Shown one piece after another: positions 15,125 to 62,384 of a stretch of DNA of 64,000 nucleotides. This DNA comes from Lingula anatina (taxonomy: Eukaryota > Animalia > Brachiopoda). Location of the stretch: assembly GCA_051362555.1 (NCBI GenBank), contig CM120645.1, positions 10,974,001 through 11,038,000 on the forward strand, read 5' to 3'. Position 1 is the stretch's first letter. Each line of letters opens with the position of its first letter. A program made the translations under genes and the position numbers. The notes below the pieces were generated by a model. That model was not told where the DNA came from. It worked only from the letters and a program-made list of their open reading frames with translations, and made no database searches.

Positions 15125-15990
15125 CCATTCCCAGACCCTATTGTACTAATTTTGGATCTATCTATCTTCTAGGGGATTCTCGCTAAATTGCAATCAACTT
15201 AAGCGGCTCAGATGTCTGTCAAGCCTACTGAAGCTGACAGGGGGTAATTAACTATCATTTAGCAGCTTTGCTAGGCATGTCAGACATCTGAGTCACTTAA
15301 AGCAATAATAACTCTTCCTTTGAGATTCAAAATTCCGCATGAAATACATTGTAAACAACGCATGGAAATATATTCTATTGTATTTTACCACTAAAACGGC
15401 CGTTATTGTAGTAAAACTAAAATCTGTGCTTGTCAATAGGGCTTTCGAAGCTTTCATCAAGGCATTCGTTGCTAATGACGTAATGGTGTCACGCGGATTC
15501 TCGCGTTCATTCGAGACCAAAATAACATATGGCGCCAAACGCATTAATGCGGACGCAGACGTAAGTTGCGAGTTTTTGTACAGTGCGTCGGATAACAAAA
15601 AGCCCAGAACGGCACACATTGTGGATATTAATGTATTTTTAACAAAAAGACGAATATATCTCATGAATCTTATATAGTGTTGTTGTTGTCTGCTTTTCCC
15701 GCGGTTTTAAGTAGGTCAACAGTGACTATGCGATGTCAGAGAGAGCTCCGTCAGTTAAAATCTCTTAAGAGATTTTAACAAAAAACCGTACGTTTAGGAA
15801 AAAAACCCTGGATTAACTTTGAATGCAGGAATGGGGTCGCTGACCATTGGTAAGTACGGGAAAATTGCCGTTTACTCCAGGAAAATCCAATTTTTGGCCA
15901 AAATGAAGAGTTATTATGACTTTAAGTTTAAAGCAATTTAGCAAGAAACCCCTTGGAGATAGATCCATCTGGGTATAGGAACGCAGTCTT
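15125..15990. mobile_element. MITE family 3 copy split by a nested insertion
   Basis: The left half (GGGGATTCTCGCTAAATTGCAA...CAGACATCT) ends at 15296, and the right half (GCAATTTAGCAAGAAACCCCTT..) resumes at 15926. Together they match the intact copy at 17255-17558. Confidence 0.7.
15301..15921. mobile_element. Non-autonomous TTAA-target DNA transposon (Kolobok-like), 621 bp
   Basis: TTAA|AGCAATAATAACTCTTC ... GAAGAGTTATTATGACT|TTAA gives a ~17-bp TIR, a TTAA TSD and AG...CT termini. The interior is CpG-rich, unlike the flanks. Confidence 0.7.
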
Positions 15991-17254
15991 ATACATAAGA
16001 TGGCTATACACACCTTTACTCCCCCCCCCCCTTCCTTCCCAGCACAAGCACCTTTTACTAACCAAGAATTGGCCTAAACATGCATTAAAGTGTTTCATGT
16101 ATTTTTTCTTATATATATATATATATATAATTAAATACTAAATTTGATTTTGTGCGAAAAATTCCTTGAAGTCCTACTCAATCATAAATTTGGGAAAAGA
16201 GTTATTTGGCTTTTTAATTCAGGAAAAGAGAGTTATTTGACATTATACCTACATTATACCTTTAAAAAGGTTATTTGGCAAATGGAAATGATGTTTAAAA
16301 AAAAGAAAACATCTCAATTTAGTCAATAACACCACAAAATTCACAAGTAAAATGACAAAAATTGATACTTAGTTCTTAAGTCAAACAGGCAAAGAAATAA
16401 CCACACAATTGAACATCTACATGATATACTCACATCATGATGTTACTGACACATCAAACCTATAGATAGGTGCAAAATTCCCACTTGTTATGACAAATAT
16501 CACATTACCTTAAGTAACTTATCTGCCAACAAGGGAAGAAAAATCCCCAGTACGAATTCCAAGAAACAGAGCCTTCTCTCTCATTACAGTTTACAATGTC
16601 TTCTACGTAAAAGCCTCCTGGGTGGCTATAAAATCTCCAGGTTTCAATTTGAACAATGTCAGGCAACAACATCTGGAACCATCCACTTAATGTCTATTTT
16701 GCAAGCATGATAAAGCATGTTTTCTCCCCCAGTGTATGTCTAGAGCGCCGCAATGTTGGTAAAACTACCAGAATTCTTGCCCACACTGACTATGTTCAAC
16801 CCCATACTTTCTCCAAGCATGAGACTGTTCTCACTTACTTTCCTTCATCAGATGCATTGCTCTAGGGTAGACATCCTTTATCATGTTCTTATGTCATCAT
16901 TGTGGTAATTATTAACAATTTTCCAACATATCTCTTTTTTCCTATATCATTTCCCCCCAAATATTCAAACAATTTCTTTCGGCATGAATGCCGTTTTTCA
17001 CAAATCATAAATTATTTCCATTTTTTCCTGTATCAATTAGTTCCAAAACATTAGAAATCTACAACTACCCAAATTTTGTTCAAACATTTAGAGAAATTAC
17101 CGTAGAAAGAATTAATCAATGGCCTTGCTGATAGGTCTGACCACCTCCAGTGTTTCCCTTACCAACTGGGCTCAGGTTTACGTCATCCCACTCAACACAC
17201 AGGACTCACAGCACTGAAGATACAAGTGCTTGAGGCTGGACACTTGGAGATCAA

Positions 17255-17558
17255 GGAAGGGCAATACAGACCAAGACTCAGTTCTCATACCTAGATCGAT
17301 CTAACAGGATTGATCTATCCATCTCCTAGGGGATTCTCGCTAAATTGCAATTAACTTTCTAGTAAGCAGCTTAGATGTCTGTCACGCCTACTGAAGCTGA
17401 TAGAAGGTAATTAACTATCGTTTAGCAGCTTTAGTAGGCATGCCAGACATCTAAGCCGTTGAAGCTGAATGCAATTTAGCGAGAAACCCCTTGCAGATCC
17501 TGATCCTGTTGGATCGATCTAGGTATGGGAACCCAGTCTTGGTTTGTATTGCCCTTCC
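17255..17558. mobile_element. MITE family 3, long imperfect foldback
   Basis: GGAAGGGCAATACAGACCAAGACT..CATACCTAGATCGATC mirrored by GATCGATCTAGGTATG..AGTCTTGGTTTGTATTGCCCTTCC. Related copies at ~15130, ~34240 and ~61560. Confidence 0.75.
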
Positions 17559-26502: not shown

Positions 26503-26676
26503 AGCCACATTCAGGACAGTGGACTAACCACGGGTCAAATATAGGGACATAAAAAACGCTTGACATCTAATCCCCTTACACAATAGACACTGAATAGATT
26601 CCCTACGGGGAAGTATTCAAGTGGGTCAGCCTTATTTGTCCCTCGGACTACTTAGTCCACTGTTCTGAATGTGGCC
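26503..26676. mobile_element. MITE family 1 copy
   Basis: GCCACATTCAG.ACAGTGGACTAA / TTAGTCCACTGTTCTGAATGTGGC, flanked by TTA. Confidence 0.7.
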
Positions 26677-27434
26677 TTAGACCCTTGCAGAGTTGCCATG
26701 ACAGTGCTTAATAAATATACACAGATCTACTGTCTACCGTCTAATTCACAACAGAATAATTATAACACGCGTAAGCAATAGAAGTCTGTTCTCAAAAATA
26801 AATAAAGTGCATGTACATTTGTTGAGTTGGCATCTCTGCACTTGTCAGATTTAGACTATCTATAATGTGTTTGCCTTGGCAAAGTTCTTACTAATGCTAG
26901 TTCTTTAATTTCCGGGAAAATATTTTTAGTGGCCTATAGCAAAATAAAGTTCGTTTTTGTATGGAACTGCTATTCTATTGATTTTTATTGTCGGGCAATG
27001 CATGTGCAAAGTTCTATCATTGCATGTCATGTTACTTTTAGTTTTCCAAAATGTTATCAAAAATAAATAAAAAACCAAACGAGGCTGCAGGAAATTTGTT
27101 AAAAATATGTAACCTTGCACCAATAACATTAATTACAGCGTCATGTAAAATTAACCTCACTAAATCACATACACATGGTATTCAATGGTTAACTCCAAAG
27201 CGCAGCTTTATAATGTAAAAACACCGGTGAGACACACTTCAGATACCAACTTGACTTCGTCGCTGTCGATCCTTTTGCTTTGGCAAGAGAGAGAGTGACG
27301 ATAAACACAACTCACTCGTTATTTCTTGTAGCGTTTCCCCTTTAGACTCGCTAATTGGAAAGAACATAAATATGTCAAATGCAAATTTGCCTTAAAATGT
27401 TTGAGTGAGGAGAAAGTTGACTGTCTTTACTTAC

Positions 27435-27459
27435 CAAACTCAATCTGTGTCGCCACCAT
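27435..27459 (-). CDS. Putative alternative first exon of the CDK17-like gene (MVATQIEF, phase 1)
   Basis: Minus strand AAGATGGTGGCGACACAGATTGAGTTTG|GTAAGT has a good Kozak context and a perfect donor, and sits in a CpG-richer promoter zone. Its phase equals that of the 6498 exon. Assignment to the kinase gene is inferred. Confidence 0.45.
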
Positions 27460-27791
27460 CTTCTCTTGGTTATTGTGTTTACCCAAGATTCCTTGCTTCG
27501 TGCAAATGGTGTAAGCGACTTTTGCTACTGTATTTTTAAAAATCTACGACTTGAATCCCCAGCAAAGTGAACTTACTTATTTTTATGAATACTAGCTTGG
27601 TAATGAAATATGGTTTACTGTATTTTATTTGTTTTTGAAAAAATATTCATCTTTTTATTAACATAAGAGCGACTTCATTACAGTTCCACGCATGCGTTAC
27701 AGGAAATGATACTCGTGGCTTGCTCATTAAGAAAATAATGATGGATAACATTTCTTGACATTTATTATCGTACTGTAAATAAGACTTGAAG
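27460..27791. promoter_or_regulatory. Bidirectional promoter between the CDK17-like gene (-) and SLC35B4 (+)
   Basis: Two divergent ATG-plus-donor exons are 332 bp apart. CpG is locally retained at ~27.1-27.9 kb amid CpG-poor gene bodies. Confidence 0.55.
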
Positions 27792-30700
27792 ATGCACCCA
27801 GGATTCCCAATAGCAGCGGTTTTTCTAGGTTGCTGTAGCAACGTAGTCGTCTTGGAATATCTTGTCAGGTTAGTTTACAAAGGTGTATACTGAAGGATGA
27901 ATCATGAAAAATATTAAGAATAAATTTTGTTTTTATAAATTACAGAGAACTTGTTGTGCAAAACTTAAATTGAAAGACTTTAAATGAAAAGTCTTCAGTA
28001 GACACGATTTCTACTTAAGATAGGATTCATGATTGTCATCTTTTAAAAATTAGTTTTGTATGACTACATAAAACCCAGTATTTAGCATGTAGCCAGTTTA
28101 GGTGAAAATTCGTTTACTAGCACAACTGTGTAAGGTACGTGTATCTGACATGGGTCACACTAATATCTGCAACACTGTGCAGTACACTTGAGAAAACGAC
28201 TCTTGGTGTGAGAAAACATGTGAAATGGTCATTTACAAGAAAATAGGGTGTAAAAGCGAAACATATTATTACAAGGTTATATTTTTATCCAACTTGACAA
28301 AATTCTGTGATTTGTTTATAAACTGTCAGGTCATCCGCCATATTGACCACTCAAGAAGATATAGGAAGTGGCTCTTCTAAGTTCTTTGTAATATAGCAAT
28401 GAGCTGACATGAATCATCCTCATTTGTTGAATTTGATCAACAACAGTTCTTAAAATCAGACTATTATCCTGTGAATGACCATTTTTGTATTTACCTGCAT
28501 CTGGAGTTGATTTCTCTAGTGATATCAACAGAGCCATAAGTAAGGTGAGATCCATCTGCTTGTCTACTAGTCATGGCACAGTGAAAACATACACACACTA
28601 TTGCGAGGGCAATGACCATGACAGACAAACTTCTAAATGTGAGAAGAACCACAGAGATCATTTCCTGCAAGCTGGCCATTTCTTTTTAACTATCCACTTC
28701 AACTTCCATTGTATGTACACTATTCTGCACAGTATGTTGCTTCTTGGCTAGTAAAGATTTGCATCATTATTTGAGTTACCTCACCCATTCAGAAGTCCGC
28801 ATTTGGTTTTCTTTTTATGGGTACTTAATTTTATGGCAGACAATAACTGGAAGACAAGCAAGCAAATCTAACCTTACTCTTGTTCAGGGTGTTAGCCAGC
28901 ACACCAAGTGTCTTTTTCAGGACATGGAATATAAAATATAACATGTTGTATTAGCCCAATTAACATGGCTTCAGTGGAAAATTTTCATCATTTTTGTTGT
29001 GTTCTGTTCCAGGGAGTTTCCAGGCAGTGGGAATATTGTCACATTTTCTCAGTTTCTGTTTATTGCATTGGAAGGGTTTATATTTCATGCTGATTTTGGG
29101 CGAAGAAAGCCTGTTGTCCCTATAAGGCAAGTATTTATATGGAAGAGTTTTAAAGGCTGTTTGAATATTCCTTAAAAGCACTTACAAATATGTTATAAAC
29201 TTAACAGTGAAAAATTGTCTTATGATATACAAGTATTGGATTGTGTAATTATAGATCCTTAACTATAAATTTCACATTGCTATTGTCAAAAGAATCTTAA
29301 TACTGAAAACAGCAAAGAAAACTCCACTCTATAATTTTTAAGTCAAATTGATGACAAATTGCCTAAAAATAATAAAAGTAAAAATATTTGATGCTGATTT
29401 TGTTAAGAGTTTTAATTTTATTTAATTGTTTTAATATCTGCCTCCCATTTTGATTCATCAGTAGCCATAATTAGTCTATTGCAACTGTATTGTACAAGTA
29501 CAATTGTAGAACGGAGATATTTGTAAATGCCTTTCATTTGCTGTTTGTTTATCTAAGTGGAAAAAAAAAAAACGATGAAGTAAACCATATCACAATGCTA
29601 TATTGATTTAATACTTTAAAAGATTAATGTATTTCTATTTTTTCCTAGACATTATGTCTTTTTGACCATGATGTATCTTTGTGCTGTTGCTCTGCAAAAC
29701 GTACTGCTCTTTTTACAAGTGTCCATCCCATTACAAATTCTCATTAGATCGGTGAGTCGAGCAGTGAAAAGAAGGGGTCACTTTCGTCCCTGGATGTTGC
29801 CCATTCTGTTGTTGTTGTTGTGCAGTTTATTTTGCCTGCTGTAGTATTGCAAGCATTACAGAAGTGAATTGGGTACATTGAAATTTATTAACTAGTCCGT
29901 TTATACACCTCCACCCCACCCACCCCCCTTTCCACCCTCACACAAAATCTGGCGATCTCATTTGACACTCCAGTTTCGAAAATATTTTACTGTTCATTTT
30001 TACCACTGAAAATTTATCCTTATCACATTTTGTATCAATTGAAAATTTCACCTTTGTAAAATTGTCCAAGTCACTTCTGTTTGTAGTGACAACTTATACC
30101 AAAATTTGTACTGTTTACAAGACACTAAACGAAATCCAAAGCCATTGCACTTGTATTGAGAAACAGTATGTTTTCCAAAGCAAGAGCAAATTGTTATTCA
30201 CAAGAATTGGGAAAAAAATTTATCCAGATCATTCAAGTATGCCATAACATGGTTTTTATGATTTATTTAAAGCTAGCCAAATTGTGACATTCAAAATATT
30301 TAAATATATCATTTTTGTGAAAAACATTTATTAAAATGATGTTGTAGACAATGTTCTTACTATATTTATATTCTTGGCTTGCAGAAAACTTGAATTATTA
30401 ACCCCACATTTCAGTTTTTATGGTTTAATTTCCGTTGCTTTATAACAAATGCTTTTCTTTCTATTTATTTTCTAATATTTTTTCCATATATGCAGACATT
30501 ATGTTGTCATGGTGACAATTTTCTTTGTGGTACAAGTTGTGAATAACCTAGTCTTAGGCTTCAACATCTCCATGCCATTACACATGATTTTCCGTTCGGT
30601 AAGTTTTGCCACTCAAAGCAGGGGCTGTGTTCACATGGGATGCCAAATGCTGCACACTCAGCTTCAGTTAGCCATCTTCCAGACATAATCCAACACCATT

Positions 30701-33700
30701 ACCAGACATGTTTCACCAAAGTGGCTGAAATGTGCTTTAAAAATGCCTTTATTTTTTATTTTTTATTTTTATTTTTTGTAACTCGGAGCTTTTAACTCTT
30801 CAGAGAAGTGCCATGTCTGTTTTATTCTAAAACTGGTTTTTTTATTTTTTTTATTTTTTTTTTAATCCTCTGGACCACTGTTTATAATTTTATATTTGCT
30901 ATGACAGTAACAGCATGCTGCTAATCGTCTAGCCAGTTAGGTGCAATTGAAATTTTTAGGGCACAATTTTAGTCCATTATTTTGGCTGGTTTGGTGAAAT
31001 GTACTTGACAAATGGTGTGTAATGATCTGGTGAACTTGTTGAACATTGCAATCCAGTCTTGACTATCGCACAGCTTAGGCAGGCATTGTGAGGTGTCCAG
31101 ACAGTGAAAGTTATGTCTTTGGTAGCATTGCTTATAACAAAATAATATCATTATTTGTTTCTTTGCTGGCAGACATTATGTTGTTATGGTGACAATATTC
31201 TTTATGGTCCAAGTTGTGAATAATCTGACCTATGGGTTCCATGTGTCTGTGCCATTGCACATGATATTCAGATCGGTAAGTGGTTGGGGTTGCAGAAGTA
31301 GCAGAAAAAAAACAAGTGTTAATTAACAATGTGTTATCAGTGTGAAATAGCTTTATAAAAAATATTCAGCAATAGCCATTTTCTAGGAATATACTTCCCA
31401 GAAGCCATTTTCTGATCTTTATAGAAAGGAGTCAAATCTTCGTCTCTGTTTGCCCTTTTACAAATATCATTTTTGGCATGTCTCTGCCGTGGGAGTGAAG
31501 TCTGGTTGCACATGTTTGCTAGTTTTTTTTCTTATTTTTTTAAAACTCTGCTTGATACCCGTGAAAAAAAGGGCTTACTTGGGGCTGTGTTTGTTGTTGG
31601 CATTGTTGCATGAACAATATTTGATCCTTAAAAATTTTTTAAGATGATTTTTTTTTAATTTAACATATTTAATAAAAACATTTTACTCACATTTGAAATC
31701 AGTTTATCTTTTCTTTTATATTATATTTAACTTTAAGTATATAAAAATACCTGATATTTAATATAGTTGTATGTAATTGTAGACAGTCAATACTAATTTT
31801 ATTTTTAAAATAGCTGTTATAACAATCTGGGCTTGTTCTAGCATGATAAAATGCCAAAATATTTCATTCTTTTCATTTTATTATTACGTGATGTTTGTTT
31901 TATCATACTTTTTACTATCAATTTGTTGTTCATGGAAAAAGTGATTTGGCAAATATTTTGAACCACACGGATTAAAGTGTAAAAACATGCTAGATTAAGT
32001 CCTGCTTTTTTACACCTTTAGAGTGCTAGAAATTCACATATGGTTTTTTTTTTTTTTACTTCCAGGGAAGTCTTATAGCAAATTTATTTTTAGGGGTTTT
32101 AATTCTCAAAAAAAGGTGGGTATTTCAAGATCAGGATTTCAAAGATCAATCAACTGATATTTTTTTTAATGTGATCAAGCGTTTTTTGCCTTTTGGTATT
32201 TAGCATATTAACAGTTTTCTTAAAAACATGTAGATTTTATTTATTTTACCAAAATTGAATTTCAGCATTCAGCATTCATTAAAAAAACTAATGAATTACA
32301 AAAAAAAAAGTGATTGAATAACTTTGTTATTTGAATGTATGTTTTGTTTATTCCAGCTATAAACTATCCAAATATTTATCAGTGATTATGATCACAATTG
32401 GTATAGCCATATGCACAATAGCTTCAGCCAAGAAAGTGGTAAGAGTTGTTTTCATTTTTGCCTCACTTCACATTGGTTATGCTTTATATATATTTGTTTG
32501 TTCTTGACAAACCACAAACCCAACTGGAATTGATTTAATTTCAGATTTAAACTTAATTTCTATATATAAGACTGAGGCAGGATAGGGATTTCCTAAAGAT
32601 TGTAAAAAAATATGGAAAGTGGCTGGATTTTGATATTTTTGTAGTGTCCAGGGAGTATTTGAGGGTAAATTCACAGAAAAGTGAGGATTTTTCTTTCCTT
32701 TTGCATCCCTCATTTCTGAGATGAGTTTAGTTTCATTTCATCCTGACTTAATAATTTGATGGGTTTTTTCGCCTCCAGAAATCAGAGCACCTTGACGACG
32801 GCAGCGATGGCATGTACGACCTGTTCATCTGGATAATTGGCATCAGTGGGCTGACCTTTGCCCTCCTCATGTCAGCCAGGATGGGCATTTACCAGGAAAC
32901 CATATATGCCAGGTTTGGAAAACACCCCAAGGAAGCTTTATTCTATAATGTACGTATTGCCAGTAGCTTGGAAGTAAGGCCCCATTCAGAATAGGGGACT
33001 AACTAGTCCAAGGGTCAAATATGGAGACCTACTACAAAGCTTGCCGTCTAATCCGCTAATACGCACTGAATAGATACTGTATCCACGTATTCAAGTGGAT
33101 CAACCATATTTGGTCCTCAGACTAGTTAGTCCCCTATTCTGAATGGGGCCTAACACATGCTTGAATATTTGAACATGAGACCCACTTCTGAATGTTTATA
33201 ACCCTTGACAAAAAAAAAGTGAAAAAAAAATCAAAATGATAAAAAGATAATGATCATTTTGATTAGTTTGCATGCAGCGTCATTTTGAAATTGGTTGTCT
33301 TTTCCTTGGAAATAGTTTTAGTTTGATGGCTGTAGACTGAGTGTGTTAAGTTATAGAGTAGCTTTTCATCAACAGTACTATTGCGGATGGTCTAACAATC
33401 TCTGAAAAAATTTTGTGGAAAATATAGCATAAAAAACGTCTAACATTTTTTATACCAAATGGTATTTGGGTCCGTAGATAATTAGATAGACCAACACATT
33501 AACAAAGTTCAGCAAAACGATAAATGAAATTTTATAATAATGTAAATTTTTTGATTGGTAATTTTTGACAGTGTCATTTCCTATTATTTCAGCATGCGCT
33601 TCCTCTACCAGCATTTCTCCTTCTTGGCAAAGATATATATAACCATGCTGTGCTCTTCACAGGTTCTGGTGAGTATAAAGAAAATGTTACAATGTTACTT

Positions 33701-34761
33701 TTTCAAAGGACAAAAATTCTTACAGATTAAGGTATTAGCAAATACTTGTATATATATTCAAGTGTTCTCTAAGGTCTACATACTTCATATTGGTTTTAAA
33801 ACAATTGAATTTGTGTGTAACTTAGGATTTTGGATCAATTTTATTTACTGTATTCATCTCAAAAGCATTTTATTTTTGTAGTATTAAATTACATAAAAAC
33901 TTTTTATCACATTTTATAATGTTTTGTGCAGATTCCATCTTCCCATTTCAGTGTCAGCTACATTTATAATGATCTTTTGAGACACCTAAACATGTCTTGT
34001 TGATGGGTTTTTACATCTTTATTTTCAGAACCCATAGATGTTCCTTACCTGCCAGCTATACCAAGGATGTGGTTCTTCTTGGCTCTAAACGTACTAACAC
34101 AATATCCTTTACATTCAGTCCATGTTTTATATACAACCAGAGACGCCATCTTGGCTAGCAAAGGCCTTTACCATCTGAACCTGATCATGTAGTTGGGTCA
34201 CTCAGACAGCCTTGGTGTTTTAGACTGTGTTCACATAAACCCAGCGTACTAGCTGGATTGATCTAACTCTGCAGGGATTCTCGCTAAATTGCAGTCAGTG
34301 TAAGCGGCTAAATTGTCTGACACACCCCCTTGAGTAATTTAATCACCCCCTAGCAGCTTGAGTAGGCATGCCAGACATAAGCTGCTTACACTGAATGGAA
34401 TTCAGCCAGAATCCCAGCAGAGTTAGATTGATCAAAAAAAGTTAGCAGAAAAGTTGAAAAGCTTTAACTGTATCTTCATGTAGATTTAACCAGTCTTCTT
34501 CATATGAATATCCTTAACGATCTCAAGTATATATGCATCCGTGCGGTGTTCATTCTGACTACGGAGTGCCAGTCCCTGACCGTCACCCTGGTCGTCACTC
34601 TGCGGAAGTTCACCAGTCTCCTCTTCTCTATCATGTACTTCAAAAACCCTTTCACAGTCTACCACTGGGTAGGGACAGTGCTGGTCTTCACTGGGACCAT
34701 GTTATTTGTGGATATTTATAATATTTTGAAGAGTCTGCTTGGAAAGACTAAAGCTGAGTAG
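27792..34761 (+). CDS. SLC35B4: Nucleotide-sugar transporter SLC35B4 (UDP-xylose/UDP-GlcNAc transporter; Drosophila Efr-like), ~326 aa, 9 coding exons
   Basis: Exons: 27792-27868 (MHPGFPIAAVFLGCCSNVVVLEYLV), 29013-29126 (EFPGSGNIVTFSQFLFIALEGF), one of three exon-3 versions, 32066-32115 (GSLIANLFLGVLILKK), 32357-32438, 32779-32949 (ALLMSARMGIYQE..HPKEALFYN), 33593-33668 (HALPLP), 34029-34101, 34527-34761 (YICIRAVFILTTECQSLTVTLVVTLRKF). The total is 981 nt, in frame, and colinear with human SLC35B4 as I recall it. Confidence 0.93.
29649..29751 (+). CDS. SLC35B4: SLC35B4 mutually exclusive exon 3a (divergent)
   Basis: TTTCCTAG|ACATTAT...AGATCG|GTGAGT, 103 nt, encodes HYVFLTMMYLCAVALQNVLLFLQVSIPLQILIRS with no stop or indel. 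Confidence 0.8.
30496..30598 (+). CDS. SLC35B4: SLC35B4 mutually exclusive exon 3b (closest to canonical)
   Basis: TGCAG|ACATTAT...CGTTCG|GTAAGT, 103 nt, encodes HYVVMVTIFFVVQVVNNLVLGFNISMPLHMIFRS. Confidence 0.9.
31173..31275 (+). CDS. SLC35B4: SLC35B4 mutually exclusive exon 3c
   Basis: GGCAG|ACATTAT...AGATCG|GTAAGT, 103 nt, encodes HYVVMVTIFFMVQVVNNLTYGFHVSVPLHMIFRS. Confidence 0.88.
32978..33150. mobile_element. MITE family 1, cleanest copy, in SLC35B4 intron 6
   Basis: TAA|GGCCCCATTCAGAATAGGGGACTAACTAGTC ... GACTAGTTAGTCCCCTATTCTGAATGGGGCC|TAA: a perfect ~31-bp TIR with a TAA TSD. Confidence 0.88.
34102..34526 (+). other. U12-type (minor spliceosome) intron of SLC35B4 with apparent AT-AA termini
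   Basis: Donor ATATCCTTT, branch site TCCTTAAC at 34511-34518. The reading frame (T-Q-Y-I-C) requires CA|..CAA|G. Confidence 0.8.
34240..34434. mobile_element. MITE family 3 variant inside the U12 intron
   Basis: GATTGATCTAACTCTGCAGGGATTCT..CAGTGTAAGCGGC mirrored by GCTGCTTACACTG..AGAATCCCAGCAGAGTTAGATTGATC. Confidence 0.7.
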
Positions 34762-37280
34762 TCGCCTAGTAGAGTAATAGTACAGGCGTGCCCATTGGTT
34801 GAAAAGACACTAAAGTCAGCCTATCAGATGAACTGATACTGACTTGATATCAGGTTTTAGATTTGGCATCATGTTTCGGTACTATAATTCACTTGTTTCA
34901 TAGTACACGTGTTACACACAGGATTTTGGAAGACATATTAGTAAAGTTGGAGGTCTCTACCACATAGAACCACACACCAGTAGAGAAGTTTGATCCCACC
35001 TTGGAGTCTTTGATGTGATAAATGAATAGATTTATAATATTTATATTTTAGTATTATTTATTTTAAGATGAGGTGTCATTATGCTTAGAGTTAATGGGGG
35101 TTACCAATTGTAGGGCCTCAAAGAAATAAGACCAAAGATCACAGATCACAGAAAAATCAGTGGATTGGGTAGCAGTATTATAAACAAGCACGAATCACCT
35201 TTCACAGGACATGGCTTTGGAGTGATACATGGTGTCATGGCAATTAAAATAACATTACGTAGATAAGGAAGAAATAAATTTGGTCAATAACTGGGCATGG
35301 CTTTAACCTCCCCCTTCCCCAGTTAAGTATACTAGGTTGTTCAGCTTTAGGGAATATCTATGCAATAGAAAAATTAATACTGTACCGTAGGCCTCCTTGT
35401 ATTTGTTGGTGAACATTGGTGAAAGAAATCCTTATTATGAATTCTTAGAGAATATCATTCTTATTTATTAAGTTCCTTTGCTGGTGTTATCAATGTCTGT
35501 CAAATCTGCTGTTTAAGTATCACCATAAGGTGGAAATGGTGTCAGTGATTTTTTGTTTAGATCTGACTGATATCAGTGATATGTGTTAAGCTTTAAAGAA
35601 AAGCAAATGTTTGTTTTGTCAGAGATGTTTTTCAAGGAATTAATGATTGTTTATCAAGTCTTTGAGGACATTAGGTAATGTTTGGTACAACTCGAGACTT
35701 TTTTTTTTGGGGGGGGGGGGGTAATTTCCGTCAGTAATGTATTTACTGTCAAACTGCTTGAATTTTTAGTTGAGATTTCTAGATTTTGGAACACAGTGGA
35801 TGGTCTTTATTCAGCAGGATCATACTACACAGAGTAGTAAAGAGGGCAATTGGAGAAAGGGAAAGGTACAAGGTTGATCGCTCTCTGTTTGTAGATTTTT
35901 TTTTAGAAGATTAAGACCTTAGTCTTAGAATGCTTACAAAAAAAAAAAAAAACTTTTGGAAGAAATATGCTTTTGGTTTGAAAGGGAATGGAAAATTCCA
36001 TGATTCCTCAATAATTGATGTGAAATTAAATGATCTGCTTTCCTAAATCCACACTAATGTCGAAACTAGACTATCAATCTTTGCTGACACTTACCTCAAA
36101 TAATCTTATTGTTCATGTATAGAACGAAAATCAGTTATATTTATGAAATTATTTATAGTCTCCTGCAGTATTTTTAACCCTGTATTATTTTAAAAATCAT
36201 TTAAGTGCTGTTTAAGGTCCAATTTGCAAAAGTTGTACTTCAACTTTTTAATAATACATTTATCATACAATACATATTTATTTGCAACTGTTATATGATG
36301 TCATCTTCTTTATAATACGTAAATAGTCCACTTACAAAAGTCATGTACATGCTTTTTCAACAGAAGGCTTGTGGCACAAGTATTTTGTGTGGGTTATCTT
36401 TGATGCATTGGATTTCAGCTGCCCCTTAACTTTGAAAAGTTAAAATTAATGCCTATTAGTGACCATTATGAAATTGCGATGTCATGATTGAAAGAAGGCT
36501 TAGACGACTCTTTATGAAGTTCAGCATATTAAAGGATTTCTGGCTAAGTATTCGATGGCGGTATCTTAGTCACTGAACCAGAAATAAACTTTAGTTTATA
36601 CATTGACATTTGGAATTACACATTGAAGTAGGTTTTTGTATTGATAAATGTTAATAAAATGTCCATAAGAATGAACTTTCGAATTGCCTTTTGTTTGATT
36701 TTGATGATTAAAGTCACTTCCGACCAAAAGCAAACGACCGCCTGATAAAGTTGGAATCTTATTTTGGCCACATAAAGAGATAATGTAATTACAAGGGGGG
36801 GGGGGGGGGGGGGGGGGGCGCGCATAAAAGCACATCAGTCACTCCTGTTATTATTAATAAAATTCATTTATTGATATTTTTTAATTGTCAGCGTTTTAAT
36901 CGAGAAGTGTAAGTCTTTTTCATATGACAAATATATTGCATTACAAAAAAAAAAAAAATGCAAATATATTGTCAGTAAAATGGGGAATTATTGTTATCAT
37001 TGAAGTGAAAATTTCCACGTTATCCCTACTCTTCCAAGAACTATCTGTCACTGCATTTTATTGATTCCCATATTTGATCACGGATTGATAAGGTTGGGAG
37101 AACTGATACCATGATACACCCATAACCTTCAGACTGATAGAACTTGTGTCAATATAGGAGGGACGGCATTTCCTTGTCACACGTATTTAGATAGATAGAT
37201 AGATATAGACCCTATAACTTTCACTGTTGAGCAATGAGCGTTGGACTCATTTGTAAGTGAGGACTCCTTGTAGAAACAAC

Positions 37281-45496: not shown

Positions 45497-48400
45497 TTAG
45501 CTTCTATCACTACTATCACTATCACAAAGGGTAACATCCATGGCGTCATAATAGTCCTGTGCCGAGGACTCAAAGTTAGAACAGGTTGTGAATCCTCTGG
45601 GTTTATGAAGCTTTCCTTGCTCTCTGGCAGCCTCGTTCATCATGAACGCCATCCCTCCTGTTGCGTGCATTTCTATGTGACAATGGACCAACCACCAACC
45701 TAAAATGTACAGAGAATATTTCAGGCTTAATAATGCTATACAAATGTGATTAATGATTTGTACCTTGTGGTTATTCGTTTGGACAATTTGTATCATATTT
45801 ATAATTGTTTGTTTACTGAAAAAAAAACAATATATACTGGGAACAAGAATGCTGTTAGGGCAAAAGAAAAATAATTCTATTATTGCTCTCTGGTCTTTTA
45901 ACAGATAGATGTTATTCCTTATTCCAAAATATGAAAATAAAACAGAAGTATGAACCTGTTCAAGACAACACAAATAATAATAGTTAAGACATTTTGCTGT
46001 CGGGCAGGTTTTAGAGTTAGATAAGCTCATGTTTACTGGTCATTTCAAGTGGAAAACAACAAAAAGCAATTTGATATAAACAAACTACCCACCTGGATTA
46101 TTGGCCATTATCCTAACCACTGTGTACCCCCCTGCCGGCACGATGATGGTGTCTTTCTGCAGAGGATGATTCAGTTCCAGTCCCTGAATTCTGTTCGGGT
46201 CACGGTTCCAACGTCTTCTCACAAAACGCGGGTTGTTACACAGAACCACGCCCCCCGTGGAGTTAGTCAGGTGCCTATTGCTGCAGAGCAAAAATAGAAA
46301 AGGCTGAATTAAATTAAGATATTCCCTTTTTGTCATGCTACTTGAAGAGGGTACGCCAAAGTGAAATTTTAATATTCTTAATATAATATTATTCCCTGAC
46401 ATAGCCTAGCATCCTATAAAATTAGATTCATAATTAGATCAGGCTGTTTGAAATGAGTAAGTAAAGGGCACTGTTATCAACAGATGATATTAAAACAATT
46501 CCATGCTAAATACACCACCAGTGCACATAAATGCAAATATACATGATTATATAAAATCCAACTTAAATCGGTGGCAACAGCGTTCTGGCTTGGCTTGAAT
46601 TAATTGGAAAATCATCTACATGTCCACTCTTGAACATACCTGTCGTCAATAGTGGTACAGCACTGCGTCTCATCATCCGGGCAAGGACAGCAGATGTCCG
46701 GATGTATCTTATTAAAGAGACCGTCCGGGGACTGCTCTGGATAGGCCACCTTCAGCACGTAGAAACTGTGGCCATGCATGTGAACGGGGTGCGGGGCGCC
46801 AGCTGGAATGAGGGGTTATATGTTTGATCAAATATTAATACATGTCTTATACTATAACTTAACAAAACTTCACGTGCGTCGATATTTTGTAACGTATAAA
46901 ATAAACTCACTTAGCTATGTTAATAAGGGCGCTATGCGTAAATGCCTTTGAAAATCGTTCTGAATTTTTTTAATAAGATGCAACACAACACGTAACTCGT
47001 ACACAGAACATTGGGAACATTGGACACAGGCAGTGTTTTCACAAAAGAGCATACATGTGTACATGTGAATGAGAAATTAAATTTTTCACATAAAAATGAA
47101 ACCTGCTTTACTTCTACTTACTGTTGGCACCACCTGCCCCAACGTTGGTAAAGACAAACTGGTAAGGCCTGTTGTAGTTCAGATTGACAGTGCCGGTACA
47201 TTTACATCCTCCTAGGTTATCTGAGTCTCGGCAGGTGCCCGGACACTGTGTAATGGACCCGGGAAGGAGGTCCGGCTGAGAGAGAGGAGGGGAGGTCGGT
47301 TCCCGGAATGATATCCCGTTCACACCTGGTCCTCCTGTCTGGAAGGCAAAGTTCATCCAGAGGTTTTCGGATCTTTCAATACCTGGTTCCCCTACACCAG
47401 GTACCTGGACAGCACCCATTCTGTTCTTGAACTCCCCCGGGTTGATACACCTGGCATTGTAACTGGGAGGGAGGATGTTGTAATTGCAGTTGACGATTAC
47501 ACACTTTTTGTTGGGGTTCCTAACGCAAGGGCGAGGAACATCGCGGACGTCTTCGGGATAGATGTAAGGGCTTGTCTCGTCTCCGTAGATCAGCAGCGCC
47601 TTGCCTTCCTGGAGGGAGTAGTTGCCGATGTCATAGCCTGGATCACTGATGTGAGGAGCAGCCCTGATCCAGTATGCTTGTCGGTTTCGTGGATTGTGAG
47701 CACGGATGACGACATCGTATCTCTCACCGGGGTTAACGATCAGACTTTCCACGCCTCGTATCGGTACCATGTCGAACCCGTCGGATGCGATAACGGTCAT
47801 TAGATGAGCATCGACGGAGAACCTTAGAGCAAACTGTAGCTGAGCACCAATGATACGGAACCTGTATTTCTGAGGCTTCATGTCGTCATGCGGTTGGTCA
47901 ACGTAGAATCGTTCATAAGGAACCTTGTTGTTCTCCTCTGGAGCGTCTTGGTGCCACAGTGGATTTTCAAAGCGCCCTCTACCATTGATTAAAGCCGACA
48001 CGTAAGGTATCCCAGCAACGGCGACGCCATCGGGTCCAAAACTGAGGCTGAAACGATCCTCTGTTGTTGGAAACACAGGATTATTGGGCCAGAACCAACC
48101 TCCGCCATTTTGTTGAAGCCAAACGTCCGACGTCTGCTCGTGTTGCCAGTCCAGGAGAGTGACCACGTGCTTGTCATGTGGTGATGGGCCATTGAGAGTG
48201 GCTGCGAAACCGAGGTCTGGTCGGTGGTCGTATTCTACGGCATTAGGTTCGTTATCTTCGTGAATAATGAGAGCTCCTAGTCCGCCATCTGAGCGTTTTC
48301 CAGCTGTATGGGCGTGATACCAGAAGGTTCCTTGACATGGGCAATCAAAATGGTTAGTTGACGATAAAAGTAAATTATAGGATAACTTAGATGCCTATGA

Positions 48401-52483: not shown

Positions 52484-53800
52484 CACTGATGCTCGTAAGT
52501 TAAGAAACACTTTCTTATTTCTCGAATTTCTCAGCAACCAAAATTTTTATTGAGGCAAAATTTGTACAATAGCTAGATATTTCTCTTGTTTTTACTTTGA
52601 CTTACTGGACCGTGACATTAGAGTACTATTTACTGTTGGACACGATAGAATATGCAATGGGGGTGCCACTTGCGAAAAACACAGTTTGGCCATGCCATGA
52701 GGAGCTTCCAGTTTGGCTAGTTTCATGGGCACAATTTGTTATTTTGGACCAACCAATGGTTAGAAGAGGACTCAACGAGGTAATCAGATGGCAAATAATG
52801 GGAAGCCATCGTGCTGGGGTGCCAAAGAGACAGATTGCAAGGCAACAAAAAAGCAGCACGAAGTCAAGTGTCCAAGCTGGTAGCAAAATGGCGCCAAACT
52901 CATCATGCATTGGACAAGCCTCTTTCTGGTAGACCAATATTAACCGACGCAAGAGATGAAGATATCTGGTTCGATTATGCCACCAGGACCAGTTTATTTC
53001 AGCCAAACAATGAAAAATTGCCACCGTACGTCATTCAAGGGAGGAGCCCTGGTCAACAATACGGAGACGAAATACCATTGGGGTGCATACAATCACACAT
53101 TCAAGCAAATCCAGAAAGAAAAATCATTTTGGTGCAGGACAATGCGCCCATCCAGAAAGGATGGTCCGTGCAAGACGCGCTGCAATCGCGCGGTATCCCA
53201 CATTTGGATTGGCCTGCATATTTACCAATTCTCAATGTAATCGAGCATGCTTAGGATATGATTGACAGGACGATGAATGAGAGACAACCTCCAGTTAGAA
53301 ACATTAGAGAGGTCCAACAGGCAGTAAATAAAGAATGGAACCGGCTCTCAAAGGAAGATTGGCAGAATTTGATGGCAAGTTGCAGGAGACAATGTGAAGC
53401 TGTTGTTCAAACCCAGGGAAAGCACACCCGATATTTATTGCATAATAGACGATTAATCATCTATTATCTACAGTCTTCTTTTATTAAAACTAATTCTTAG
53501 ATGATCGAACTTTATTTTTTTTATAATAAGCTGTTTTAATCAGCACGTACCTTTTGCTGTGTGAGCATACTTTTTTGACACATGGTTTGGCATATTTTAG
53601 TACCGTTTGGTTAATAAAGTCATTTTGATTATTACAATAAGCTGTGTGGTGTATTTCTTTAACCGAAATATTCAACTTGAATAAGTTATTTATAAAATAT
53701 GAAAGAAATATGCATAATTCCACCAACAAATGAAATAATTTTCATGATAGAAGAAACTTTTGAAAACATCGGGGTGTTGCTTAACTTATGAGCATCAGTG
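52484..53800 (+). mobile_element. Decayed Tc1 transposon, 1317 bp
   Basis: 27-bp TIRs CACTGATGCTC(G/A)TAAGTTAAG(A/C)AACAC with a TA TSD. Frameshifted transposase fragments: QDNAP..LDWPAYLPILNVIEH, MASCRRQCEAVVQTQGKHTRY. The empty site GTTACA-TA-GATCTATG is seen at ~44300. Confidence 0.92.
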
Positions 53801-54769: not shown

Positions 54770-57700
54770 TCAACTTCTGTCACGTCCATCGCTAACACGA
54801 AAGGTAACATCCATGGCGTCGTAATAGTCTTGTGCTGAGGACTCAAAGTTGGAACACGTGGTGAATCCTCTGGGTTTATGAAGCTGCCTCTGCTCTCTGG
54901 CAGCCTCGTTCATCACGAACGCCATCCCTCCTGTTGCGTGCATTTCTATGTGACAATGGACCAACCACCAACCTAGAATGTACAGAGAATATTGAAAGCT
55001 TACTAATGCTATACAAATGTTCTAACATTAACCTGGTGATTAATGTTTTTTCTGTTTAGATATTGGCCAATTCGCATCATATTTATGAATGTTTGTTTAC
55101 CAAAACTAAAACAATATATATACTGTGAATAAGGATGCTGGTAAGGTAACAGGGAAATTATTCTCTTCTTTTTTTCTAAATTCTCTTAACAGATTGATGT
55201 TATTCCATATTCCAAAACATGAAAATATAACAGGAGGTTGGCCTGGTTCAGGACGACATCGTACAGAAACAATTAAGTTAGGACCCATGGTTGTCGGCTA
55301 GGTCCTAGAGTTATCTAACGTTTTATGTGCATTTGAAGTGAAAAACAACAAAAGAATTTGATATAAAGAAATTACCCACCTGGATTATTGGCCATTATCC
55401 TAACCACTGTGTACCCCCCTGCAGGCACGATGATGGTGTCTTTCTGCAGAGGATGATTCAGTTCCAGTCCCTGAATTCTGTTCGGATCTCGGTTCCAACG
55501 TCTATTCACGAAACGTGGGTTGTTACACAGAACCACGCCCCCCGTTGAGGTGGTCAGGTGCCTATTGCTGGAGAGCAAAAAAAGAACATTCTGAATTAAA
55601 TACAGATATTCAATATTCTAGCCTCTAAAATTCTTAATAAAATATTATGCCCTGAAATAGCCTAGCATCCTATAAAATTATATTCACAATGTGATCAGGC
55701 TGTTTGAAATCCCAATCCCATGCTAAATACACGATCAGGGCATGTGAATGCAAATACTGGTACATGTAGCAACAGTACGCTAACTTAAATTAATGGCAAC
55801 AGCGGTCTGACTTGGCTTGAATTAATTGGAAATCATCAACATGTCCACTCTTGAACGTACCTGTCGTCAATAGTGGTACAGCACTGCGACTCATCATCCG
55901 GGCAAGGACAGCAGATGTCCGGGTGTATCTTGTTAAAGAGACCGTCCCGGGACTGTTCTGGATAGGCCACCTTCAACACGTAGAAACTGTGGCCATGCAT
56001 GTGAACGGGGTGCGGGGCGCCAGCTGGAATGAGGGGTTTTATTTTCCATCAAAATTTCAGTAGGTGCTATATATTATAACGTTAGAAAAGTTCACGTATG
56101 TCGATACCCTATCCTTTATGTAAACAAATGCACAATGCGTTAATGCCCTTGAGAAACGTTCTGAATGTTTTTAAATAAGAAGAGGCACAACATGTAACTC
56201 TTTCACAGAACATTGGACACTGGTACTGTTTAACAATAGAGGATACATTTAAACATGTACACGAGAGATTAAGATGTTACAAAAAAAAAAAAAAAAAAAA
56301 AAAAAATGAAACCTGCTCTACTTCTACTTACTGTTGGCTCCACCTGCCCCAACGTTGGTAAAGACAAACTGGTAAGGCCTGTTGTAGTTCAGATTGACAG
56401 TGCCGGTACATTTACATCCTCCTAGATTATCTGAGTCTCGGCAGGTGCCAGGACACTCTGTAATGGAGCCGGGGAGGAGGTCCGGCTGAGAGAGAGGAGG
56501 GGAGGTCGGTTCCCGGAATGATATCCCGTTCACACCTGGTCCTCCTGTCTGGAAGGCAAAGTTCATCCAGAGGTTTTCGGATCTTTCAATACGTGGTTCC
56601 CGTACACCAGGTACCTGCACAGCACCCATTCTGTTCCTGAACTCTCCTGGGTTGATACACCTGGCATTGTAACTGGGAGGGAGGATGTTGTAATTGCAGT
56701 TAACGATAACACACTTTATGTTGGGGTTCTGAACGCAAGGGCGAGGGACTTCGGGGACGTCTTCGGGATACATGTAAGGGCTTGTCTCGTCTCCGTAGAT
56801 CAGCAGCGCCTTGCCTTCCTGGAGGGAATAGTTGCCTGTGTCATAGCCAGGATCACTGATGTGAGGAGCAGCCCTGATCCAGTATGCTTGTCGGTCTAGT
56901 GGGTTGTCAGCATGGATGACGACATCGTATCTCTCACCGGGGTTAACGATCAGACTTTCCACATCGCGTATCGGTACCATGTCGAACCCGTCGGAGGCGA
57001 TAATGGTCATTAGATGAGCATCGACGGAGAACCTTAGAGCAAACTGTAGCTGAGCACCAATGATACGGAACCTATATTTCTGAGGCATGATGTTTTTATG
57101 CGTTTGGTCAACGTAGAACCGTTCATAAGGAACCTTGTTGTTCTCCTCTGGAGCGTCTTGGTACCATAGTGGATTTTCAAAGCGCCCTCTACCATTAATT
57201 AAAGCCGACACGTAAGGTATCCCAGCAACGGCGAGGCCATCGGGTCCAAAACTGAGGCTGAAACGATCATCTGTCGTCGGAAACGCAGGATTATTGGGCC
57301 AGAACCAACTGCCGCCATTTTGTTGAAGCCAAACGTTCGACATGTGCTCGTGCTGCCAGTCCAGGAGAGTGACCACGTGCTTGTCATGTGGTGGTGGGCC
57401 TCTGAGCGTGGCTGCGAATCCGAGGTCTGGTCGGTGGTTGTATTCTACGGCATTAGGCTCGTTATCTTCGTGAATAATGAGTGCCCCTAGTCCTCCATCT
57501 GAGCGTTTTCCAGCTGTATGGGCGTGATACCAGAAGGTTCCTTAACAAATACAAAGAAAATGGTTAGTAAATAATGGGATACTTTGAATACCTGAGACAA
57601 TGCATAGATCTTGCTCAAGGTTTTTTTGAGAAAACTCTTGATTCGACAATAACCTTTATACCGTGCATTTGCAATGACTATGTTTATGTCTAGTTCCACA

Positions 57701-61485: not shown

Positions 61486-62384
61486 AGTCCTATGACTTTG
61501 TTTTTATAACAGGCTTTACGTGGAAAATATTGGACTTATTGGTCTCAGACATAGGGAGCATTCCCATAAACCCATCGTACTAGCTAGATCGATCTAACTC
61601 TGCTGGAATTTTCGCTAAATTGTATTCAGTGTAAGCAGCTAAAATGTCTGGCAACTCAAGCTATACTAGAGGATAAATAACGATATTACCCCCTAGTTAC
61701 TCAAGTTAACGCAGCATTTTCTGGGGTTTTCCAGAAAAAATGTAAAATTCGAGTCACGTCAATAAGATACATATTGCGTAATATTTGCACAACTGTTCTA
61801 TACCACTTTTAATTACTGATGACTTACTAATTTGATTTATTTGACGGCAACTCTTGTATTAAGCAGAGGGAAAAAGTAAGAATTATGCAGAAATTACACA
61901 AAATGTTTGCGTCGCTGACGCGACTCGAATGCTTTAATATATATATATATATTTTTTTTTTTTTGGGGGGGGGAGGGGGTGACCTTGACTCTATACAAAT
62001 ATTACTTTGAATTGTGATCGTTTCGACTATCCATGCGCTCGTCCTATGAAGACCACTGCTCATATGTGTAGTAGTGTCATGCAAGTCATCAATGCTATAC
62101 TGTACAAAATGTCTTTGAAGGAATACATACTGTATTTTATTCTAAATACATGGAGGTGCATTGAAGACAAGTCGATACCTTATTTCTAAATGGAGTCAAC
62201 CCAAAGAAAATATATTTCATTTGTTTATAAATGGCATGAATGAAATCTCTACTGTCATCACGCACAGGGCGAGTATGGGCGAATTATGGAATCGAAACGC
62301 TTGCTCTCGGTCGCAATGCGCGATGCTTTCGAGTTACGGGGCCCAGGCTCTCCTTGAGGACACTGGCTTGGACCACATAAATGA

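Follow-up and report, generated by a model that had tools for sequence, protein, structure and literature searches.

How many transporters does the SLC35B4 gene of the brachiopod Lingula anatina encode? In the window, which is the whole 64,000-nucleotide stretch of DNA analysed here, the gene contains three homologous exons in the place of exon 3. The original prediction was that these exclude one another in use and yield three transporters with different nucleotide-sugar specificities. We found all three on the forward strand, with the predicted coordinates and the predicted length of 103 nt: exon 3a (29649..29751), which is open, has intact splice sites and is strongly diverged; exon 3b (30496..30598), which is the major form and the most ortholog-like; and exon 3c (31173..31275). 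As had been described, each starts as AG followed by ACATTATGT, ends in TCG before a GTRAGT donor and is open in one common frame. The constitutive part of the gene, on the same strand, starts with coding exon 1 (27792..27868, ATG at 27792), whose joint to exon 2 is present in 8/8 RNA runs. Exon 2 (29013..29126) feeds the cassette, gives two bases of the split codon 64 and is directly followed by a GC donor instead of GT (29127-29128). The gene model and RNA junctions further place exon 4 at 32066..32115, exon 5 at 32357..32438, exon 6 at 32779..32949, exon 7 at 33593..33668, exon 8 at 34029..34101 and exon 9, up to the stop codon, at 34527..34761.

In the gene model, a full-length protein of 326 aa results from the inclusion of any one exon 3, as anticipated, whereas omission of all copies leads to a stop at 67 aa and inclusion of two or three copies to a stop at 114 aa. 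The three are adjacent homologous exons with like length and phase, the pattern by which tandem-duplicated mutually exclusive exons are recognized. Steric exclusion is an unlikely basis for the exclusivity because the introns between the copies are 744 nt and 574 nt long.

To determine exon choice, junction reads were counted in 8 of the 9 listed RNA runs, where 6-30% of each run was read and joints with fewer than three reads are not reported. Exon 3b is supported by 171 reads (79 from exon 2 to 3b and 92 from 3b to exon 4) and exon 3c by 35 reads (19 from exon 2 to 3c and 16 from 3c to exon 4), all of the latter in runs X7-X9; each exon is joined to both flanking constitutive exons. Neither double inclusion (3b to 3c) nor skipping (exon 2 to exon 4) occurs among the joints listed for the 8 runs, although the absence of double inclusion may come from the decay of frameshifted products alone. 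RefSeq already models the two forms as isoform X1 (XP_013385439.1, with 3b) and isoform X2 (XP_013385440.1, with 3c), which is an annotation and not a study; they differ at exactly six residues, all in exon 3. Junction reads and RefSeq together support the prediction that 3b and 3c are mutually exclusive. Exon 3a is found in 0/206 alternative-exon junction reads among the joints listed for these coded runs, to which the same threshold applies, and the RefSeq cluster includes no 3a form. A search of 1.84 billion representatives with the 34-aa segment, which is a weak query, found no 3a-bearing protein; its sole match was an unrelated repetitive protein of 2589 aa. As neither listed junction reads nor a protein were found for 3a, the prediction of three isoforms is not supported so far.

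We then asked what the exchange of exon 3 changes in the protein. The protein has a UAA domain (Pfam PF08449, E 1e-112), its best similarity is to SLC35B4, and it is 61-67% identical to named SLC35B4 proteins. Like the SLC35B4, Efr and Yea4 transporters, it combines the UAA domain with a DMT fold and C-terminal lysines. The lysines are located at -5 and -3 (KxKxx, resembling an ER-retrieval signal) and are common to all isoforms; a dilysine has a role in human SLC35B4, according to the accessible part of PMC9368800. The structure model of the 3b isoform (pLDDT 79.6) contains helices at residues 63-84 and 90-97, and its best fold match is SLC35B1, a DMT fold (E 2e-10, TM-score 0.70). Structure searches found no solved SLC35B4 structure and, for the 3c segment alone, no PDB match. 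By the model and the SLC35B1 alignment the exon encodes TM3 and TM4a, in agreement with the original prediction of TM3-TM4, and the vertebrate exon peptide given there is identical to the segment of the platypus ortholog.

Five of the six residue differences between 3b and 3c fall at positions 83-90, that is, at the end of TM3, in the luminal loop and at the start of TM4a. Both exons contain the conserved TM3-TM4a motif (V78, N80, N81, P91-L92-H93-M94-I95-F96-R97), and they are identical at N80, N81, H93 and R97. In the alignment to SLC35B1, a mapping that rests on about 21% identity, position 84 corresponds to L105, 90 to Y110, 93 to Q113 and 97 to K117. TM3-TM4a are the luminal gating helices of SLC35B1, and L105, Y110 and residue 113 are cavity-closing contacts (PMC12267056, in part). 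As positions 84 and 90 map to such contacts, the swap would be expected to affect turnover, stability or counter-exchange, and the four shared residues would keep the ligand chemistry of the two isoforms alike. A parallel signature of an aromatic residue 84 in 3c and in the second Owenia form (Owenia2, see below) was dismissed, as F84 occurs in 42/251 homologs.

The predicted substrate switch is not supported for 3b and 3c, since the two exons share the conserved polar and basic residues and their differences are concentrated around the luminal gate; tuned luminal gating is the likely alternative, judged from the sequences. A switch might still operate chiefly through 3a, if that exon served a different nucleotide sugar in an unsampled tissue or stage, but we consider this unlikely. 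The exon does include H93 and R97, and TM3 and TM4 of Vrg4 line the binding site and pivot about the ligand (PMC13342644, in part). Furthermore, 3a does not keep the motif (V78A, N80Q, H93Q, M94I, I95L, F96I), yet it retains P91, R97, length, frame, splice sites and hydrophobicity, and Q93 is also found in four scallop-type orthologs. Against this stand the missing 3a junction reads and the location of the sugar and base contacts, which in the accessible parts of the work on Vrg4 (PMC13342644) and SLC35B1 (PMC12267056) lie mostly in TM1, TM6-TM10 and TM4b, outside the exon.

The apparent silence of 3a might be explained by RNA pairing. Intron element Ea (30146..30193, forward strand) and the core of 3a (29680-29722) are complementary, with 35 predicted pairs and -43.9 kcal/mol. 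None of 100 shuffles (mean -22.5, sd 2.6) and none of 85 window tiles were as strong, and the stem is present in both the MFE and the centroid structures. With the letters of 3b or 3c, only 19-21 of the 35 pairs survive. By this modelling, Ea likely masks 3a. A second element, Eb (30022..30053, forward strand), has a predicted pairing of -29.3 kcal/mol with 3b (30510-30543) and, in an identical register, one of -20.1 with 3c; 24/26 pairs are kept with 3c and 12/26 with 3a. The 3b:Eb pairing, picked among 12 exon-intron pairs, is weakly significant (equalled by 2/100 shuffles and 0/87 tiles). When 29600-30700 is folded, the mean pairing probability of 3a:Ea falls to 0.17 and that of Eb:3b reaches 0.60; the two crossing stems compete because the folding algorithm is nested. 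A predicted value of 0.60 for Eb:3b sits badly with 3b as the major exon, and over its full 661 nt the region is no more stably folded than shuffled sequence (z -1.6). Among the exon-intron pairs, 3c has no element of its own that pairs beyond chance, and none of the intron windows exceeds shuffles in its pairing with all the acceptor or all the donor flanks, as a docking site common to all exons would. An inverted repeat (30562-30590/31010-31038) was likewise no better than shuffles.

The divergence of the copies shows how they have been maintained. Exons 3b and 3c are identical at 82/103 nt and differ in 6 amino-acid-changing and 10 synonymous codons, the latter in line with the many synonymous differences noted before. 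With 2 differences at codon position 2 versus 13 at position 3 (p=0.003), dS of 0.88 and dN/dS of 0.15, the duplication is old and selected, as had been proposed. Exon 3a is homologous to both, but with identities of 56/103 nt to 3b and 55/103 nt to 3c it is much more diverged than the original prediction implied. The four introns have no blastn similarity to one another, as stated earlier; where they align best locally, A/T-rich stretches face each other, and 1-14 of 60 shuffles do equally well. A short acceptor-side motif (30435..30449, forward strand) at a putative branch-point position of 3b is shared with 3c (31128-31141), as claimed, but is absent from 3a; the intron pairing scan does not support a common docking site for it.

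Purifying selection on the copies is evident for 3b and 3c and only in part for 3a. An alternative view is that of decaying duplicates: only 3b would be functional, 3c tolerated and drifting, 3a dead or dying, and Ea the remnant of an inverted duplication. In favour of decay, 3a agrees with the ortholog majority at only 9/34 residues, breaks 8 columns that are invariant in 119/119 homologs and has a dN/dS of 0.54-0.63 (0.63 to 3b). Nonetheless, its codon positions 2 and 3 differ (p=0.001-0.003) and, judged from its sequence, 3a shows past coding selection despite breaking near-invariant residues. In 3000 neutral simulations, an open frame, splice sites and position-2 conservation survived together in 0.03% at 47 changes, 1% at 35 changes and 11% with 25 changes on 3a's own branch. 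A wholly neutral history of 3a appears unlikely, which also speaks for the substrate switch, whereas the 11% is compatible with decay. For 3c, the share of alternative-exon junction reads by study is 0/136, 0/5 and 35/65, and study is confounded with lineage, so that these coded runs do not separate the tissue-dependent choice proposed originally from lineage: the 3c reads all belong to study P3, whose lineage is diverged, and the two studies near the window's sequence, P1 and P2, have 0/141. In P3, the differences listed for 3c comprise 3 replacement and 2 silent changes compared to 3 and 18 in the constitutive exons (p=0.062), and they include P91T at a site where 250/251 homologs have P. 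This suggests that 3c may be under relaxed selection. However, 3c accounts for more than half of the reads in P3, its dN/dS against 3b is low, all three exons kept their exact length while the introns lost all similarity, and Owenia likely exchanges this block as well. We thus regard decay as improbable.

The exon swap likely recurs in the annelid Owenia fusiformis, as two of its proteins (CAH1784512.1 and CAH1784513.1) have 10 differences within residues 64-90, all inside the span of this exon, and none elsewhere. The block includes the split codon 64, and the chance of all 10 differences falling there is 5e-11. Among 16 clusters compared, an exon-confined block of at least 6 differences was found only in Lingula and Owenia; the Octopus, scallop, nemertean and Macrostomum entries have one version only. 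A 3c-like exon in Mya was rejected (18/34 to 3c versus 17/34 to 3b, in a protein that is divergent as a whole). Both duplications could go back to a single ancient lophotrochozoan event, followed by gene conversion or by loss elsewhere. This is a question of origin and is compatible with the functional reading that we prefer. The same exon with the same first boundary is affected in both species, and AU tests do not reject a grouping of 3c with Owenia2 (p=0.092) or of 3b with Owenia1 (p=0.2). However, 3b and 3c group together in two trees (support 90/90 and 92/89; 34 columns, node not starred), their dS is unsaturated and the other clusters lack the block, which makes a common origin doubtful; the Owenia duplication was probably independent.

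We conclude, with a probability of roughly 0.55, that exon 3 of Lingula SLC35B4 is a tandem mutually exclusive cassette in which 3b and 3c yield two full-length transporters with probable differences in luminal gating rather than in substrate, and in which 3a is likely silent or rare owing to a predicted RNA stem. Exclusivity would follow from frameshift and decay of wrong products, assisted by pairing between intron elements and exon bodies, where Ea would mask 3a and Eb possibly acts on 3b and 3c. A far more speculative reading, which we think has little chance of being right, is that the luminal-gate exon is a recurrent lophotrochozoan splicing cassette ruled by exon-pairing introns, and that 3a, normally masked, is released in a particular tissue or stage and then gives a transporter with an altered ligand range, owing to Q80 and to Q93, the latter also present in SLC35B1 and in scallop orthologs.

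Similar exon substitutions are known from other animal transporters (SLC25A3, SLC39A14 and SLC12A1, the last with three copies), where likewise one homologous exon per mRNA swaps a membrane segment; in Lingula, one of the three copies is apparently silent. Convergent tandem exon duplication across phyla is common (PMC9741552 and the supplement of PMC8373072, both in part), but SLC35 genes are absent from the human table in one supplement file of PMC8373072 and from 10 files of PMC5740500. The two splice variants described for human SLC35B4, of 331 and 231 aa (PMC9368800, in part), differ in length, in contrast to the homologous exon swap of Lingula. Long-range complementary elements that could compete within a cluster, as in Lingula, are known from ATE1 (R1R3/R3R4) and Dscam (docking/selector) (PMC7797038, in part). 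In ATE1, intronic elements conceal 3' splice sites, whereas the predicted partners in Lingula are exon bodies and each strong element prefers one exon. No description of the cassette turned up in the literature on SLC35B4, nucleotide sugar transporters, Lingula and Owenia, searched without subscription journals, the supplements of bioRxiv preprints or exon tables for Drosophila. New here are the likely swap in Owenia, the predicted 3a-specific Ea stem and the 3b/3c differences at the luminal gate.

The substrate and role of SLC35B4 are still disputed, according to the accessible part of PMC9368800, and the isoforms are natural chimeras that differ only in its TM3-TM4a gate. The predicted 3a:Ea stem is small and open to testing as an example of a coding exon hidden by an intron. 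Exchange of one and the same exon in two phyla would indicate an adaptive hot spot, and if the cassette were indeed recurrent and ruled by its introns, the input to glycosylation would be switchable by RNA folding.

The SLC35B4 gene comprises nine coding exons spanning 27792 to 34761, and its exon 3 is present in three homologous copies, 3a (29649-29751), 3b (30496-30598) and 3c (31173-31275). As originally noted, each copy has 103 nt, follows an AG, starts with ACATTATGT and ends with TCG before GTRAGT, and all are in one common frame. Including any one copy results in a product of 326 aa, whereas including none, two or three leads to a stop at 67 or 114 aa, which confirms that only single use yields the full-length protein. 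The introns of the cluster show no mutual similarity by blastn, again as noted; the short acceptor-side motif assigned to all of them is, however, common to 3b and 3c only. Immediately 5' of the alternative cassette lies a non-canonical GC donor (29127-29128), used in eight of eight RNA runs. The last intron (34102-34526) has rare AT..AA ends, the donor ATATCCTT and a branch-like TCCTTAAC near its 3' end; by the U12 consensus it looks like a U12-type intron, and its joint is covered by reads in all four runs of one run set.

Of nine raw-read runs chosen by species label, eight were mapped, reading 6-30% of each, and joints were listed from at least three reads. Across the eight runs, junction reads amount to 171 for 3b, 35 for 3c and zero for 3a. 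For 3b, reads from exon 2 and into exon 4 number 17/32, 24/18, 16/29, 2/1 and 2/0 in runs X1 to X5, and 4/6, 7/3 and 7/3 in runs X7, X8 and X9 of study P3. The corresponding 3c reads number 6/6, 9/5 and 4/5 in X7, X8 and X9 and zero in X1-X5, so that the share of 3c by study is 0/136, 0/5 and 35/65. Among the joints listed in the eight runs, none enters or leaves 3a, connects two copies or skips all of them. We conclude that 3b and 3c form a real, expressed two-way exon swap and that 3a is a silent or rare third copy; of the three transporters predicted from one gene, the reads thus support two.

Runs X7-X9 bear the same species label, yet over 27750-34900 they carry many fixed site and indel differences from the window. 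Among the differences listed, 21 constitutive codons are affected, and this suggests a diverged or cryptic lineage. As P3 appears to be a diverged lineage, 3c use by tissue and by lineage are inseparable. RefSeq-type models generally rest on transcripts, and RefSeq isoform X2 has the same 3c letters as the window, which suggests that 3c is used in the reference lineage too. A minor joint at 28507-28864 within intron 1 (three reads), seen in X9 only, perhaps marks DNA that the P3 lineage has lost.

Other features surround the cassette. Reads on the opposite strand just upstream of SLC35B4 (27400-27656) suggest that a head-to-head neighbour gene shares its promoter region. Introns 6 (at 32970-33135) and 8 (at 34130-34480) contain small palindromic repeat elements where many reads from other loci stack; copies lie near 2470-2630, 26504-26661, 15170-17500 and 61560-61660. 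Tandem multicopper oxidase genes with large exons (minus strand, Pfam Cu-oxidase) lie at 45500-48394 and 56327-57541, with a DDE transposase fragment between the genes (52799-53251).

Searching with the 3c stretch retrieved the Lingula anatina protein XP_013385439.1, a UAA-family member (E 1e-112) whose cluster consists of two proteins, the isoforms X1 and X2. These carry exactly 3b and 3c, respectively, and differ at residues 75, 83, 84, 87, 88 and 90. Among the best 120 of 1508 matches, the 119 others are 61-67% identical and most are named SLC35B4. Exon 3a occurs in no protein of the database search or homolog set examined. The 3b/3c swap is thus already present in automated annotation; our literature search found no description of the cassette. 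That transporters can carry mutually exclusive homologous exons is already known, as is convergence among such cases (PMC9741552). The term SLC35 is absent from one supplement file of that study and from the human tables searched in the supplements of PMC8373072 and PMC5740500.

The predicted preservation of the copies holds for 3b and 3c (dS 0.88, dN 0.13, ratio 0.15) but less so for 3a, whose dN/dS is 0.63 against 3b and 0.54 against 3c. Of 34 residues, 3a matches the ortholog majority at 9, 3b at 24 and 3c at 20, and 3a breaks eight columns invariant in 119/119 homologs. Most of these stay at 249-250/251 in a wider set, in which 251 of 257 proteins have the segment and many are near-duplicates, mostly from vertebrates and Lepidoptera; there, F74 is frequently W and H93 is Q in 4/251. 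The near-invariant H93 is replaced by Q in scallop-type SLC35B4 (P0186, P0188, P0194 and P0248), a residue common to these, SLC35B1 (Q113) and 3a. Codon position 2 of 3a is still conserved relative to position 3 (p=0.001 against 3b, 0.003 against 3c). In substitution-only simulations, 0.03% of neutral histories with 47 changes match 3a, and a wholly neutral history is rejected; recent relaxation, with 11% at 25 changes, is compatible with 3a. Among the P3 differences listed, 3c has three replacement (including P91T) and two silent codons, constitutive exons have three and 18 (p=0.062), and 3a and 3b have none; selection on 3c may therefore be relaxed.

How the copies are chosen may involve RNA pairing. 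Scanning 36 region-intron pairs gave one outlier, 3a (29680-29722) with the intron element Ea (30146-30193; single-copy in the window), at -43.9 kcal/mol, with 0/100 shuffles and 0/85 tiles as strong. The predicted stem of 35 pairs, three of them G-U, is found in both the MFE and centroid folds of 29600-30260, and the letters of 3b or 3c keep just 19-21 pairs. Ea could instead be a neutral inverted duplication. For the element Eb (30022-30053), pairing is predicted with 3b at -29.3 (2/100 shuffles, 0/87 tiles) and, at -20.1 in the same register, with 3c; after selection among 12 pairs this signal is weak. The 3a:Ea and 3b:Eb stems cross, and in a longer fold their mean probabilities are 0.17 and 0.60, a difference that is partly due to nested folding. 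If 3a:Ea is the masking stem that we predict, 3a would be masked first, since Ea is transcribed ahead of 3b. Among the published cases examined, the nearest precedent for exon choice by RNA pairing is ATE1 (PMC7797038).

A likely annelid parallel is found in Owenia fusiformis, where CAH1784512.1 and CAH1784513.1 (330 aa each) differ at 10 residues, all within 64-90 and none elsewhere (chance of such confinement 5e-11). Residue 64 (N/K), whose codon is split by the Lingula intron, is among them, which is what two alternative exons with unlike first bases would produce; the pair probably reflects splicing at the same locus. Among 16 clusters compared, only the Lingula and Owenia pairs show an exon-confined block. 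A tree on 34 columns, without 3a, places 3b and 3c together (90/90); a second tree, which included 3a, does so as well (92/89). Independent duplication in the two species is favoured, and cross-species pairings are also compatible with the 34-column data (p 0.092 and 0.2).

Lastly, we placed the exon in the transporter fold. In a model of the 3b isoform (pLDDT 79.6), whose best fold match is SLC35B1, the exon lies on helices 63-84 and 90-97, and residues 84, 90, 93 and 97 align with SLC35B1 L105, Y110, Q113 and K117. In SLC35B1, TM3-TM4a close the luminal side, K117 contacts phosphate, and Q113F packs against L105 and Y110, increasing stability and reducing transport to about 25% (PMC12267056). 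In Vrg4, TM3 and TM4 are gating helices, and the sugar contacts of the cytosol-facing pose are on TM6 and TM10 (PMC13342644). Both substrate and location of SLC35B4 are disputed (PMC9368800, PMC6709370). Since five of the six 3b/3c differences are within 83-90 and N80, N81, H93 and R97 are common to both, an effect of the swap on gating or stability is favoured; an effect on substrate would be more plausible for 3a, given its Q80 and Q93.
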